DNA of 21,691 nt from Armatimonadota bacterium (GTDB taxonomy: Bacteria; Armatimonadota; Hebobacteria; CAIYQO01), in NCBI GenBank assembly GCA_038248345.1, contig JBBRXO010000047.1, positions 1 through 21,691 on the forward strand. The letters are read 5' to 3'. The notes under the pieces were generated by a model that had not been told where the DNA came from, ran no database searches, and was given only the letters and a program-made list of their open reading frames with translations. The translations under genes were made by a program, and so were the position numbers. This document shows positions 5,505 to 18,609 of this stretch, in pieces (positions within the stretch are counted from its first letter, which is position 1; each line of letters starts with the position of its first letter).

Positions 5505-5936
5505 ATGAGTCCTATTGTATACCGAAACATAGTTTACCGTGACGATGGAAGCCTTGCCTGGGGAACACTGGCAGTGGTGGTTGGGGCATTTTTTGTGCTG
5601 CTACTGGTGGGGTATTTTGCCTGGTTCCTGCCCTCGCAGCAGGTAATGGTGGCACCTCCAACTACCATCATTAACACGCCCAACACACCTGCTCCTCAAG
5701 TGATACCCGCACCTGCAGCTGCACCTGCTCCCGCACCCATCATCATCAATACACCTGCACCCGCTCCTGGGCCTGCTGGTGCACCCGGAGCGACAGGTGC
5801 CACTGGCGCAACCGGTTCGACTGGCTCGACCGGGCAGTCCGGCTCTCCGGGCGCAACCGGAGCGACTGGGTCTACTGGCTCTACTGGCTCTACCGGCAAA
5901 ACCGGAGCTCCGGCCCCTAACGCCGCGCCGAGATAG
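5505..5936 (+). CDS. Membrane-anchored Pro/Ala-rich collagen-like protein, copy 1
   Basis: N-terminal TM helix, Pro/Ala/Thr linker with IINTP repeats, and 16 contiguous Gly-X-Y triplets, mostly GAT/GST. Confidence 0.82.
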
Positions 5937-6511: not shown

Positions 6512-6883
6512 ATGAGTCCACTTGTAGATCAAAACATCGTCACTCGCGACGATAGCAACGGAGTATGGGGTACATTAGTGGTGGTAATAGTGGTAGTTTT
6601 TGCACTGTTACTGATTGGCTATTTTGCATGGTACCAACCATCGCAACAGGTTACACCGCAAACTACCATTATTAACACGCCCAACACACCTGCGCCTGCA
6701 GCTGCGCCTGCAACTGCGCCTGCACCCATCAACATCATCAATACGCCCACACCCGCTCCTGGGCCAGCTGGCGCTCCGGGTGCCACTGGCGCGACCGGTG
6801 AATCCGGCTCCCCAGGCGCAACCGGGGCGACCGGGTCTACCGGCAAAACCGGAGCTCCGGCTCCTAACGCCGCTCCGAAATAG
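6512..6883 (+). CDS. Membrane-anchored collagen-like protein, copy 2
   Basis: Paralog of 5505-5936 with 11 Gly-X-Y triplets; RBS AAGGAG. Confidence 0.82.
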   Translation: MSPLVDQNIVTRDDSNGVWGTLVVVIVVVFALLLIGYFAWYQPSQQVTPQTTIINTPNTPAPAAAPATAPAPINIINTPTPAPGPAGAPGATGATGESGSPGATGATGSTGKTGAPAPNAAPK

Positions 6884-7198: not shown

Positions 7199-7969
7199 AT
7201 GTATGAGGAAATTGAGGCGGATATTGTGGCGCTGGACCTGGAGACCACCGGGTTATCTCCGCGGCACGACCGGATTGTGGAGTTCGCCGCCGTGCGCTGG
7301 CGTGCGGGGGTGGAGGTGGCCAGTTTTCAGTCGCTCTGCCACCCGGGGCGGCACATCCCCGACGGGGTGATCCGTGTGCATGGTATCACCAACGAAATGG
7401 TGGCCGACGCGCCGTCGGTGGCGCAGGTATTGCCGGATTTCCTCGACTTCTGCGCCCAGGCCGATGTGGTAGTGGCGCACAACGCCCCGTTTGATATGGG
7501 TTTCATCCGCGCCGCCTGCGCGAGTGCCGGGCTGGAATGCTTCGATGTGCCGGTGGAGGACAGTTGCAATCTGGCGCGGCACAACTTGCCCGGCAGCCCC
7601 AGCTACAGCCTCACCACGCTGAAGCGGCTGCTCAACATCGACACCGGCCGCGCCCACCGCGCGCTGGAGGACGCCCGCGCCTGCCTCTACGTCTACCTGC
7701 ACTGCCTCAACCACACCCCCCTGCCCATAGGCCGCCTCCGCGAGTTGAACCACCTCCCCGCGCACCTGTCATTGCTAGAAGAGGCGTTGAATACCGGCAC
7801 CGTGGTGATGATCGAATACCGCGACACCCGCGGCATCCCCAGCAGCCGCGCCATCCAGCCGATGTCGGTGCAAGGCGGGGCAGTAGTAGCCCACTGCCAC
7901 CTACGCGGCGAACTCCGCCACTTCACCATGGTGCGGATCGAGCGGGTTTGGCGGGTGGAGGAGGAATGA
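7199..7969 (+). CDS. DEDDh 3'-5' exonuclease (DnaQ/PolC-type) with C-terminal WYL-like domain
   Basis: ExoI ALDLETTG, ExoII VAHNAPFD, ExoIII HRALEDA. The C-terminus IEYRD...RAIQP...VAHCHLRGELRHFTMVRI matches the WYL pattern. Confidence 0.85.
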   Translation: MYEEIEADIVALDLETTGLSPRHDRIVEFAAVRWRAGVEVASFQSLCHPGRHIPDGVIRVHGITNEMVADAPSVAQVLPDFLDFCAQADVVVAHNAPFDMGFIRAACASAGLECFDVPVEDSCNLARHNLPGSPSYSLTTLKRLLNIDTGRAHRALEDARACLYVYLHCLNHTPLPIGRLRELNHLPAHLSLLEEALNTGTVVMIEYRDTRGIPSSRAIQPMSVQGGAVVAHCHLRGELRHFTMVRIERVWRVEEE

Positions 7970-11404: not shown

Positions 11405-11522
11405 CTGACCTCTCTCTTTCCCGTACATCGTCCAAAAAACGATGACTTATGTATATGATACAAGAAAAGTGACGTTTCGCGCCAATTTGAGGGTAATTAT
11501 TGTCGAAGATCGTTTTTAGTGT

Positions 11523-11880
11523 CAAGCCATGATCCCTGGCCTGGCCGTGAACGGCCAGGCTGGAGGACCTACGACCGATCGGCCTTCGGACGGGACGGTT
11601 TAAGGAAAGCGTGCCCACCCGAAGGGGTGATGGAAACATCTTTCCACCACCCTTTCAGGGTGGGATATCGAAGACGATTCATACCCGGCGCTTACGCACC
11701 GGGCTATATTCCATCACCGATTCGCGGTGGATAGTTTTGCGCTGGGATTAAAATCCCGGCTGCGTGGCGCTACGCGCCGGTCGTCCGCCTTCGCGGACTT
11801 GTCTGAGCCAAACAATAGCGCGCTTTAGCGTGCTTGCCGCCTGGCCGCCATAGCCAGGATGGCGACGGCGGGTTGTTAGC
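11523..11880. repeat. Cluster of REP-like elements of three families
   Basis: 11523-11598 is homologous (inverted) to the right arm of the 14738-14883 element. An imperfect ccacccgaaggggtg / caccctttcagggtggg inverted pair follows. 11741-11800 is homologous to 2172-2232 and 18680-18737. Confidence 0.75.
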
Positions 11881-11947
11881 CACCTCCTTCGGGGGACGTA
11901 TTCACTACTTATATTCTCTTCGTGCCTTCGTGGTTCACTTCACCCCT

Positions 11948-13261
11948 TCACCCCTTCGCCCCTATCAACAACTCCTCTACCGTCACCTGCTCGCCGGTCC
12001 AGTCAGGGTGGAGGCGGTGCAAGCTGCCGTTGAGGCTGGTGGCGCCGTTCTGCAACAGCACGGCCTCGATGTCGGCGCTCTCGCGGGCGTCGTTGGGCAG
12101 GCCGTCGGGCCAGTCGATGGTGGGCAACTCCGGGGTATATTTTGCCCCGTGTTTCACCTCCAGGCACTGCGCCAGGTAGAGCGCTTGCGCCAACCCGGCG
12201 GTGAAGTAGGCGCGTTTGCGCGCTACCTTGGCCAGCGTGCGTAGCAGGCGATATTTCAACGCACGGCCGCTCTCCGCCACGCCGAATTTGTCGATACCGA
12301 AGAGAGAAGGCGCGGTCTCGCTGGTGAGCAACGCCAGGTCGGTGAGCCGGTCGATCTCGGTGAAGGCCGCTGTCAGGTGTGCGTCCCAGGTGAGGTACTC
12401 CGGGCGCGGGCGCGTCTGCGGGTCGAAGGGGATGATCTCCAGATCCTCCAACGCCACCGTGCCGTCCGGGCGGATGAAGTCCAACGGCACCGCCAGCCGC
12501 GGCGAAGCGTGCTTGCGCAACACCTCCGACACCTGCGATAGCCGCTCGTTGAGCGCGGCGAAGAGGCTCTCCAGCCCCAGATAATCGGAGTAGCCCCAGA
12601 AGCGGCTGCCGGTCCGGTAGTTGGGGATGTGGATAAGCGGTATCGCGTCGATGCTTGTCTCCTCCACTGCCAGCGGCGCGTGGTCAGCGTAGAGCGCGCT
12701 CAACGGCAGCTCCTCCTCCGGCTGCAACGTCACCGGGTCGGCGCGATGCAGCAGGCGGCGCACTTGCCCAGGAGTATGGACATCGCGCCGCAATAGTGTC
12801 TCATCGCCCAGCATACGCGGCCAGCCCAGGGTGGCGCCGCGCATACCGCGCACGTTGTCCGGGTCGATATCCGGCACGAAGATCGCCGCCGACACCTCCT
12901 CGATGCGCGCGCCACGCGGCGTCCAGCGCACCGAGAGCACCGCGTCGCCCCGGAAGGAGGCGGCCAACGAGGCCTCATAACCCACCAGCCGCAGGTCACT
13001 GGCCATCACCAGTTTATCCAGCGCCGCCTGCGTCGCCGGATCGACGACATGGAAACGCGGCGTCTCGCCGAAGAGGATATCGGCGCAGGTTTTGCTGATA
13101 ATCCCCGCCAGGTTCGCCGTCAGGTAGCGCTGCATGCGCCGCGTCTCCGCCGGGCGCACCCGGAAAGCCTCCTCATGCCGCCCCTCGAAGAGCAGTTCAA
13201 AGCGCCGGTAATTCTCCCACCGCGCCGCATCCGCCGCTGTATACCACAAATCCGCCATCAT
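11948..13261 (-). CDS. Phage portal protein, SPP1 Gp6-like (solitary)
   Basis: About 437 aa. NLAGIISKTCADILFGE, GDAVLSV, IPLIHIPN..FWGYSDY..LNERLS, EYLTWD, ESGRALKYRL..K and IDWPDGLP are typical of SPP1-type portals. RBS GGAGGG lies just upstream of the ATG at 13261. Confidence 0.85.
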   Translation of the reverse strand: MMADLWYTAADAARWENYRRFELLFEGRHEEAFRVRPAETRRMQRYLTANLAGIISKTCADILFGETPRFHVVDPATQAALDKLVMASDLRLVGYEASLAASFRGDAVLSVRWTPRGARIEEVSAAIFVPDIDPDNVRGMRGATLGWPRMLGDETLLRRDVHTPGQVRRLLHRADPVTLQPEEELPLSALYADHAPLAVEETSIDAIPLIHIPNYRTGSRFWGYSDYLGLESLFAALNERLSQVSEVLRKHASPRLAVPLDFIRPDGTVALEDLEIIPFDPQTRPRPEYLTWDAHLTAAFTEIDRLTDLALLTSETAPSLFGIDKFGVAESGRALKYRLLRTLAKVARKRAYFTAGLAQALYLAQCLEVKHGAKYTPELPTIDWPDGLPNDARESADIEAVLLQNGATSLNGSLHRLHPDWTGEQVTVEELLIGAKG

Positions 13262-13287
13262 ACGCCCCTCCATTACTAAGATGATAA

Positions 13288-13317
13288 ATAATAGCAAACG
13301 TGCGTTTGATTTGTCAA
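13288..13317 (-). promoter_or_regulatory. sigma70-type promoter with embedded palindromic operator (LexA-box-like)
   Basis: Minus strand TTGACA-18 nt-TATTAT with TG extended -10. CAAAC-N4-GTTTG at 13295-13308 lies inside the spacer. Confidence 0.65.
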
Positions 13318-13337
13318 TAGGGAAGTAGTTTTTCTAT

Positions 13338-13590
13338 TGAACCACGAAGGCACAAAGGCACGAATAGGTTAGGATACATGGGTACCCTGGGAGCGCAGGC
13401 GTCCCGCCTGCCCGTAGCATGGGCGTCCCGCCCATGCGAACGGGGTTGCGATTCTTATGTTTTTTTCAACACAGAGGGCACGGAGAAAGTAAGTGGGGCT
13501 AGCAGTTGTTAACCACGTCCTTTAGGGCGTGGTGAGGAGCGCGGCCCTGCAAAAGTTTAGATATTTAGACCTTAGCGGGGCCGCGCTAAG
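13338..13590. repeat. Cluster of REP-like elements
   Basis: tgaaccacgaaggcac; cctgggagcgcaggcgtcccgcctgccc and gtagcatgggcgtcccgcccatg (inverted relatives near 8221-8306); accacgtcctttagggcgtggt (relative near 18840-18861). Confidence 0.7.
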
Positions 13591-13648
13591 GCTTGGCACC
13601 CTTCCAGACATCAATCCCTTTGCCCATTCTCCACAGAATTTGGAACTC

Positions 13649-14737: not shown

Positions 14738-14883
14738 CGCCCAGCCGTGAACGACTGGGCTAGTGGGCTTCGCCGATCGTCCTTCGGACGGGACGAATTA
14801 ACCATGCCCGTCCCGCCCGAAGGGCGATCGGCCATAGGCCCTCCAGCCTGGTCGTTCACGGCCAGGCCAGGGATGAGGGCTTG
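14738..14883. repeat. REPIN-like long imperfect palindrome
   Basis: gccgtgaacgac..ccgatcgtccttcggacgggacg / cgtcccgcccgaagggcgatcgg..gtcgttcacggc; same family as 11523-11598. Confidence 0.75.
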
Positions 14884-14895
14884 TGGCTAAAACCG

Positions 14896-18111: not shown

Positions 18112-18609
18112 TTACCCATTTTTGATCACCCTAGAAGAACCCGTGTCAATGTCAACGATCATAATAGAAGCCTCCTTGCTTTGATAACCATAATCACAAA
18201 TCATGATGTTGTTATCTGACAAATACGATATCTGTGGGTTTGTATTATGTCGCAAAATATCGCTATTCAGCTTAATCTCCTTAGCATTCATTTCAGAAGA
18301 TATGACTCGCATCCCACCTTCATAGACGTATGCTATATAACCATCATGCACAGCAATATTGCCAATTTTTTTCAATGGCAGTTTATTGCCATTGTCATAC
18401 AGCAATCTACCATTGGAATATATTACTTTGTTTTGTACTTTAATCCATTCGTCGCGTAAATCTCCACTTTGATGTAGCCTTAGCATATATACTATCGCAT
18501 ATACTGCTATCGCAATTGCGAGCACAACACCGGCCATGTACTTTTTATTATATATTACAGTTTTTATATTGCAGCATCCTGTTCCGCGCCATTCTGTTTT
18601 GTGAATCAT
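18112..18609 (-). pseudogene. AT-rich hypothetical membrane-anchored protein, probably truncated or degraded
   Basis: Composition is visibly more AT-rich than the flanking genes. An N-terminal TM (MAGVVLAIAIAVYAIVYML) is followed by beta-rich sequence, and the downstream 17915-18110 gives only short frames broken by stops. Start uncertain (ATG also at 18537). Confidence 0.4.

Follow-up and report, generated by a model that had tools for sequence, protein, structure and literature searches.

The portal gene in the 21,691-nucleotide stretch of DNA analysed here (the window; contig C47 of G000, a 2.98-Mb metagenome assembly in 185 contigs that is 95.7% complete) is one of five loci that lie among host genes, share a promoter with an overlapping palindrome, and probably (we put this at roughly 0.6) specify a domesticated, SOS-induced head-tail particle resembling a gene transfer agent (GTA). 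The genes, their scatter and co-occurrence, their intact frames, purifying selection and the shared promoter and palindrome are observed, and particles, transcripts and packaged DNA are predicted from the genes; we are highly confident that the host maintains the set as a co-regulated system of one kind or another. We call it GTA-like and do not assign it to a named family because random packaging and transfer, the defining features, lie beyond sequence analysis. The original prediction had offered two readings of the portal gene. The first, one locus of a dispersed, host-controlled, phage-derived particle system, is supported by scattered modules, a shared motif, orthologs, dN/dS below 1 and a separate portal clade; the second, a portal ring acting alone as an anti-phage decoy, is unsupported, since a full complement of morphogenesis and lysis genes accompanies the portal.

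The window holds the following features:
11948..13261, minus strand: portal protein gene, SPP1 gp6-like, 436-437 aa, one of the set's five loci (Pfam, PHROGs, fold, orthologs)
13265..13271, minus strand: ribosome-binding site GGAGGGG (read from the sequence; orthologs carry similar sites)
13288..13317, minus strand: sigma70-type promoter, TTGACA (13317-13312), 18-nt spacer, extended -10 TG, TATTAT (13293-13288) (promoter scan, relatives)
13295..13308, unstranded: predicted LexA (SOS) operator, palindrome CAAAC-N4-GTTTG in the promoter spacer (lexA-trained matrix, score 18.2)
11511..11945, unstranded: genome-wide intergenic repeats downstream of the portal gene, not element-specific (31-83 blastn matches per stretch; high depth in public contigs)
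13330..13600, unstranded: intergenic repeats upstream of the promoter that recur genome-wide, among them one arm of a 20-nt inverted pair (165 and 15 blastn matches)

The gene had been described as a full-length, uninterrupted SPP1-Gp6-like portal, and each line of evidence agrees: the ORF scan finds no stops at 11948-13297 (minus strand), and the product matches PF05133 (E 1.8e-7; 31 bits against a family cut-off of 25.5) and phrog_533 (E 3.2e-29). In the Foldseek check that the original prediction had called for, the best matches of the structure model (mean pLDDT 66.5) were the portals of 80alpha, SaPI1, phiCD508 and SPP1 (E 1e-11 to 7e-9, probability 1.00), to which it superposes as a portal fold with a TM of about 0.4-0.45, and a profile search with the window portal also matched the phiCD508 portal (E 2e-5). 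Translation likely starts at the ATG at 13258 or 13261, 3′ of the GGAGGGG at 13265-13271 that had been named a strong ribosome-binding site; an ortholog in the same genus begins at the second Met. TIGR03139 and Pfam place the gene between queF and an alpha/beta hydrolase, as claimed, and no further virion gene appears among the window ORFs scanned (17 against Pfam, 10 against PHROGs) apart from collagen-repeat matches, in line with the claimed lack of other phage genes nearby. The composition had been called host-like, which is wrong: its 66.4% GC falls on the 99th percentile of host ORFs (1582 heuristic calls, median 55.4%). It is plausibly monocistronic because queF has its own promoter-like site; the window scan lists no terminator-like site downstream of the portal gene.

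The portal promoter (TTGACA-18-TG-TATTAT, 13317-13288) scores 11/12, which upholds the claim of a near-consensus sigma70 site, and yet the window score is weak if taken alone, with three sites against 1.5 ± 1.1 in shuffles; the call has weight because the architecture is conserved in relatives, matching in 5/6 portal upstream regions. The palindrome in its spacer was overlooked by the original prediction. A version of this palindrome overlaps the lexA promoter in 11/11 family genomes with a lexA ortholog (L217-L227; G008, with a weak lexA match only, was excluded), giving a predicted family LexA box of (A/G/T)AAC-N4-GTTT that overlaps the -35 element. Our literature search found no paper on the LexA box of this family. 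With a matrix trained solely on these 11 lexA upstream boxes, the three best-scoring sites in the genome are, in this order, those of the terminase, recA and the portal, and upstream boxes at recA are clear only in G000 and G001 of the 11 genomes. Scores of at least 10 occur in 26/28 element upstream regions (31/33 with the five regions of a C45 gene described below, which the first count omits) as against 2.8% of 600 background regions.

Every locus of the set has a TTGAC(A)-spacer-TG-TA(T)NAT promoter overlapped by an AAAC-N4-GTTT palindrome, and in G000 the motif with at most one mismatch also lies upstream of lexA, recA and a DinB-like gene. When sites in G000 were ranked by strong promoter plus box, 22 were found and five of the top seven belonged to the terminase, the portal, the scaffold-capsid pair, the tail operon and a 59-aa gene on C15, a partly circular ranking as its thresholds were chosen after the element promoters had been seen. 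Motif scores are also inflated where -35 and box overlap, since TTGACA followed by AAC gives part of the box, but boxes are found upstream of, within and downstream of the promoter core. We infer that LexA binds the palindrome at the set's promoters, and the set is predicted from this motif to be under the control of a host regulator.

Two other genes of G000 with a box were considered as members and rejected. The C45 gene (L139:3867-4331, minus strand) encodes a Cys-rich protein of 155 aa with neither a Pfam nor a PHROG match, and has a perfect box; it is a general SOS gene because it is present in carriers and non-carriers of the set alike (5/5 of each, 10/10 family genomes searched), and is an unnamed SOS gene of the family. 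The C37 gene (L138:4233-4871, plus strand; 213 aa) has a weak PHROG virion-protein match (E 0.06) and was not found in 5/5 carriers searched.

The original prediction had suggested a genome search for terminase, capsid and tail genes that stand alone and share the promoter motif, and these are present at other sites of G000. Using 1993 plus-strand ORFs from the 91 phage or prophage loci with the nearest portals as queries, matches fell on C158, C127 and C56, and the five loci are the portal on C47, the terminase on C158, the scaffold-capsid pair on C56, a neck-tail-lysis operon on C127 with its end on C119, and the 59-aa gene on C15. The features outside the window are:
C158: large terminase as an ATPase gene of 243 aa (phrog_38, E 1.6e-62) and a nuclease gene of 236 aa (phrog_38, E 8e-50) (PHROGs)
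C56: scaffold (PF06810, E 1e-9) and HK97 capsid (PF05065, E 7e-53) (Pfam)
C127: adaptor, closure, tail terminator, Ig-tipped tube, chaperone remnant, tape-measure-like gene of 140 aa, 120-aa gene, hub (profile searches)
C119: amidase end of the tail operon (G000)

The other four sites also sit among host genes, which we take by recognition to include folC, ligA, lpxA, nusA, thrS and dusB, and no replication or integration genes were seen beside the loci read. The hub gene on C127 is cut by the contig end. In relatives the operon continues with a LamG-domain tip, a 70-aa holin-like gene without a family match, and an Amidase_2 endolysin, and the tip and holin of G000 probably lie in the assembly gap between C127 and C119 because the amidase end of its operon is on C119. 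The chromosome therefore carries head, packaging, tail and lysis genes as expected of a GTA, with the tip and the holin-like gene seen only in relatives and with the tape measure, distal tail and holin labels resting on position and sequence character. Among carriers the tape measure spans 140-194 aa and the scaffold 109-140 aa, lengths that point to a short tail and perhaps to a small head. Tail chaperones with the -1 frameshift layout are retained in G003, G005 and G011; G000 has a 76-aa chaperone remnant, and in G001 the position holds no chaperone. No amidase was found in the 99% complete G003. The hub query found no match in five non-carriers, in a search without a positive control.

If the particles are indeed made upon DNA damage, they might serve as weapons like PBSX of Bacillus subtilis, holding DNA perhaps and delivering none, and bind competitors or soak up phage receptors. 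A weapon would fit with control by the SOS response, with the lysis cassette and with a LamG tip that varies between carriers (33-62% identity), and PBSX itself is described as packaging 13-kb pieces of host DNA and yet acting as a tailocin (PMC12946183). Against this, the five tail operons read, four of them in relatives, have no sheath ORF between terminator and tube, where an R-type or PBSX-like tailocin has a sheath gene, and the best-conserved parts of the set are head, portal and terminase, which a tail-based killer does not need. We therefore regard killing or decoy particles as unlikely.

A tail fragment on C28 of G000 (tape measure, tube, DUF2924) was rejected as a part of the set, as its minor-head match falls on the DUF2924 ORF and no box is listed for it, and it is treated as a separate mobile remnant. 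This contractile-tail element remnant (L130:741-4234, minus strand) has a tape measure fused to a piece of a Tn5-type transposase, a tube-like gene, a LysM-type wedge gene and DUF2924. In another family, contig C129 of G014 (L203) carries a clustered prophage-like region with tube, tape measure (292 aa), distal-tail and hub genes; no other of the loci searched gave a match to the last three genes of the element, and the region is a possible relative of the tail donor.

The terminase of C158, flanked by two pilin-like host genes, is split into two genes at the same breakpoint in G000, G003, G005, G009 and G011; stop and start of the halves overlap in G003 and G009, and in the other split carriers the start site is separate. 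G001 has its ATPase gene closed by a stop, and directly after the gene imperfect ~90-nt tandem repeats run to the end of the contig, C4 (L196:6850-7364). The terminases of the phage relatives are fused, with a single ORF at 18 of the 19 loci with an ATPase match, and the closest of them (45-49% identical) have the same P-loop, while the top three carry an insert of ~45 residues exactly at the split point. P-loop Lys, Walker B DD, TRW and the acidic residues of the nuclease are all kept; we dropped Gly for Arg in the P-loop as a sign of a dead ATPase, since the closest fused terminases share the motif. The two halves would act jointly as the packaging motor. A small terminase was found by PF03592 in 0/5 genomes and by PF05119 in 1/5, there on a contig with an unrelated capsid gene, and 83 profiles from phage neighbours found neither a small terminase nor a minor head gene. 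Blanks from single families are unreliable here, as PF03237 missed the G000 terminase.

Such a terminase split could cripple or alter packaging. A second alternative is an intracellular anti-phage system, in which SOS-induced portal, capsid, split terminase and tail parts mix into the assembly of an infecting or induced phage and spoil it, and holin and amidase lyse the cell early. The closest relatives of the portal, adaptor, terminator and tube are in viral contigs, SOS accompanies prophage induction, and a split terminase without a small subunit could be dominant negative. Co-assembly with those phages is doubtful, however, because the portals are just 45-50% identical and their capsid is of another family, and an ordered, complete tail operon with a chaperone frameshift and a receptor-binding tip exceeds what interference needs. 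Interference with phages is thus quite improbable as the function of the set.

The capsid and tail operons may have a second layer of control. Their leaders share an invariant TGAG-hairpin-AGGCG element followed by a terminator-like stem and T-run (11 sequences), and 13/18 pairs have changed on both sides, a number reached by 0/500 shuffles, for a structure derived from the same alignment. G000 has three occurrences of the pattern, two of them at the capsid and tail operons, and in Rfam the leaders matched nothing, the six weak matches falling elsewhere. Related phages have similar leaders, in three of them behind a small gene weakly like the 59-aa protein (E 0.14-4.3). The 59-aa gene is present in five of the six carriers, missing from the 77% complete G001. 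Its product has no Pfam match at E 0.1 and was not found by PF10055 (DUF2292) in five genomes, so that an Atlas lead (0.79) to a cluster with 30% DUF2292 does not place it in that family, and a pattern search found no relative in viral contigs. That the protein is an antiterminator at these leaders would be a lead, and stays one because the small genes behind the phage leaders resemble it only weakly.

Orthologs of portal, terminase, capsid and tail tube co-occur in the same 6/12 family genomes, spread over three genera. The expected portal orthologs are present in 5 of the 11 other family genomes at 65-93% identity, and among 31 class genomes capsid (72-86%), terminase ATPase (63-87%) and tube (54-73%) orthologs occur in exactly the six portal carriers, other matches being ≤41%. 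Across the phylum the portal profile matched 8/401 genomes, namely the six carriers and two far weaker ones. The scatter is not assembly breakage because on a single 90-kb contig of G003 three modules, each flanked by host genes, lie 25-30 kb apart (terminase at 25.3 kb, capsid at 50.1 kb, tube at 79.8 kb). Module boundaries are identical in all carriers and neighbours differ between genera, those of the portal even between G000 and G001.

All aligned orthologs are free of internal stops, and the proposed selection check gives a portal dN/dS of about 0.1 (NG86: 0.10 against G001, 0.10-0.13 within genera), with 0.135 for the capsid and 0.08-0.28 for all genes in the closest pairs. Between genera the values are 0.24-0.7 for structural genes and about 1 for the tape measure, with dS probably underestimated at high GC3. 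A quick tree of 47 rows places the 11 host-type portals in a single clade (SH-aLRT 100, stem 0.85) with subgroups that follow the host genera, apart from the sampled phage and prophage portals; purifying selection in a lineage separate from phages is as expected of a GTA. The original prediction had named nesting among recent prophage portals as grounds for a simple relic, and the portals do not nest among those sampled. Carriers are not shown as one host clade: on the rpoB tree carriage needs two changes, with only 6% of bootstrap trees giving one, the recA tree joins the non-carrier G006 to the window's genus (88/92), and the host trees place genus g2 outside and leave the other genera unresolved. 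The lack of the set in G004, G006 and G007 may reflect losses or, alternatively, an early transfer.

These patterns bear on whether the set is an old prophage in slow decay, broken up by repeat-driven rearrangement and without current host function. The set is missing in half of the family, partial losses have occurred (small terminase, chaperone of the window's genus, amidase of G003), repeats are abundant between the genes, and in prophage relics a dN/dS below 1 can persist for a while. Random breakage is disfavoured because it would not supply each fragment with its own promoter and box in three genera, the same breakpoints in all carriers, or compensatory changes in leader hairpins; frames are also intact at 50-75% protein identity. 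Decay is therefore a very unlikely account of the set.

The repeats themselves lie between nearly all element genes and may drive module shuffling. The 13-nt core pattern of the inverted repeat has 44 copies in the genome, and a portal carried as cargo of a small transposon was rejected since the flanking 20-nt inverted pair belongs to this genome-wide repeat. Short intergenic repeat families of tens of copies occur at 11511-11945, 13330-13600 and 14739-14895 of the window and in the L129 and L135 intergenic regions.

An assembly or binning artefact that puts phage genes among host genes is largely refuted: although G000 is a 185-contig metagenome assembly and no public contig bridges the portal to queF or the hydrolase (the contigs break at the flanking repeats), the isolated layout recurs in five other genomes, a stronger argument than run X1 (which may be the source sample), where portal depth is 13.1 against 10.9-13.2 for its neighbours, one contig covers portal and promoter, and the halves of the terminase are each linked to a host neighbour on two contigs.

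For the GTA-like particle that we favour, DNA damage would lift LexA repression at the five sites together, and small HK97-type heads, each bearing a short, non-contractile tail, would be assembled in the cell. The heads would likely be filled with host DNA by non-specific packaging, without a small terminase or a phage genome to recognise, and lysis would release them. The 59-aa protein would act as a second switch by lifting the terminator in the capsid and tail operon leaders, and recipients might use the released DNA as a repair template or as new alleles.

Very few GTA families are described, most of them in Alphaproteobacteria (PMC12946183, PMC9662315), and our literature search found no description of such a scattered, SOS-wired set in Armatimonadota, with supplementary gene lists outside the search; the term 'split terminase' is absent among the literature matches listed. 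RcGTA of Rhodobacter capsulatus (Rhodogtaviriformidae) is similar to the present set in being multi-locus, with an HK97 capsid and under purifying selection. Its loci are described as scattered without conserved order (PMC5026251), and its capsid is among the solved-structure matches of our capsid gene (E 2e-15). Both systems have raised GC at codon positions 1-2, as described for RcGTA genes (PMC7360931): here the GC content of the element genes is high in all carriers (0.65-0.72) and stands out most in the window's lower-GC genus, and their GC12 is raised relative to host genes (p 1.5e-8). The carbon saving of alphaproteobacterial GTAs was not seen for the portal in comparison with phage portals, as side-chain carbons are slightly costlier (2.99-3.10 in 8 proteins vs 2.92-3.13 in 28 phage-type ones, p 0.083). 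RcGTA has terminase, portal, capsid and tail in one 15-kb cluster, whereas here they occupy separate sites, each with a predicted LexA box; where Rhodogtaviriformidae have an HK97-type portal by terminase and capsid, ours is a solitary PF05133 portal of the SPP1 type with the rest elsewhere, the terminase is in two genes and no small terminase was found. RcGTA control is described as a CtrA/GafA switch with LexA acting indirectly through CckA (PMC6363796). In Caulobacter, GTA particles are described as aiding DNA repair (PMC9632790), the same benefit as proposed here; its controller RogA is a LexA-like repressor without cleavage residues that acts upstream of activators, with no SOS box per structural locus.

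The Brachyspira GTA (BhGTA, VSH-1) is described as induced by mitomycin C, released by lysis, with a single terL outside the structural cluster and on a long branch from phage homologs (PMC9662315). We liken the present set to it by this description in lytic release (here predicted, as is induction), in a terL apart from the structural genes and in the long branch, and the two differ in host phylum and in the BhGTA structural genes forming one 16.3-kb cluster. Outside Proteobacteria, mitomycin-induced PBSX and FpGTA of Faecalibacterium are described as particles that package host DNA (PMC12946183). The first is a tailocin and the second podovirus-like, whereas the present set is dispersed with a non-contractile tail gene order. 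PBSX is also a defective prophage whose genes are clustered, with a repressor of its own and a contractile tail. The contiguous terminase-portal-head order of an intact prophage is not found here. IMG/VR phages with phrog_533 portals (L053-L128) have the closest portals (45-50%), adaptor, terminator and Ig-tipped tube, and some have a similar hairpin leader behind a small gene; unlike the present set they are clustered, with a large minor head gene, a putative small terminase, a different capsid and, in 18/19, a fused terminase.

Three genomes of the sister genus g2 (G002, G008, G010) lack the present set, and each holds an unrelated phage-derived one (L028-L030, L150, L151, L156, L288-L290). 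It comprises a small-terminase-like gene and a terminase between host genes, with an HK97 portal-protease-capsid-adaptor group elsewhere, is 85-91% identical among the pairs compared, and in G002 has portal and protease ~25 kb apart on one contig. Its boxes score 19.3-20.1 and lie inside a TTGACA promoter at 6/6 sites. A second, unrelated set with the same boxes suggests recurrent domestication, and we tentatively entertain, as a possibility short of probable, that the family has twice taken tailed phages from unrelated donors into its SOS regulon, and that the window's clade thereby independently evolved a five-locus, LexA-boxed GTA with a two-chain terminase, no small subunit and, as second switch, a phage-derived 59-aa protein with a structured leader. 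Searches that look for clusters would miss so finely scattered a set, and further such systems may be concealed among lone virion genes written off as relics; genomes can be scanned for the pairing of a solitary virion gene with an SOS box. With LexA wired directly to the set, the contested proposal that GTAs provide templates for repair could be put to a direct test. The conserved large terminase in two chains, for which no small subunit was detected, is relevant to the way packaging motors select and cut their DNA.

Elsewhere in the window, a 165-aa ORF without a Pfam or PHROG match lies in a stretch of 35% GC (18112-18609, minus strand). Tandem paralogous genes at 5505-5936 and 6512-6883 (plus strand), each preceded by a similar upstream stretch, encode small membrane-anchored proteins with Pro-rich linkers and collagen repeats, and the gene at 7199-7969 (plus strand) encodes a DEDDh exonuclease fused to a C-terminal WYL domain.
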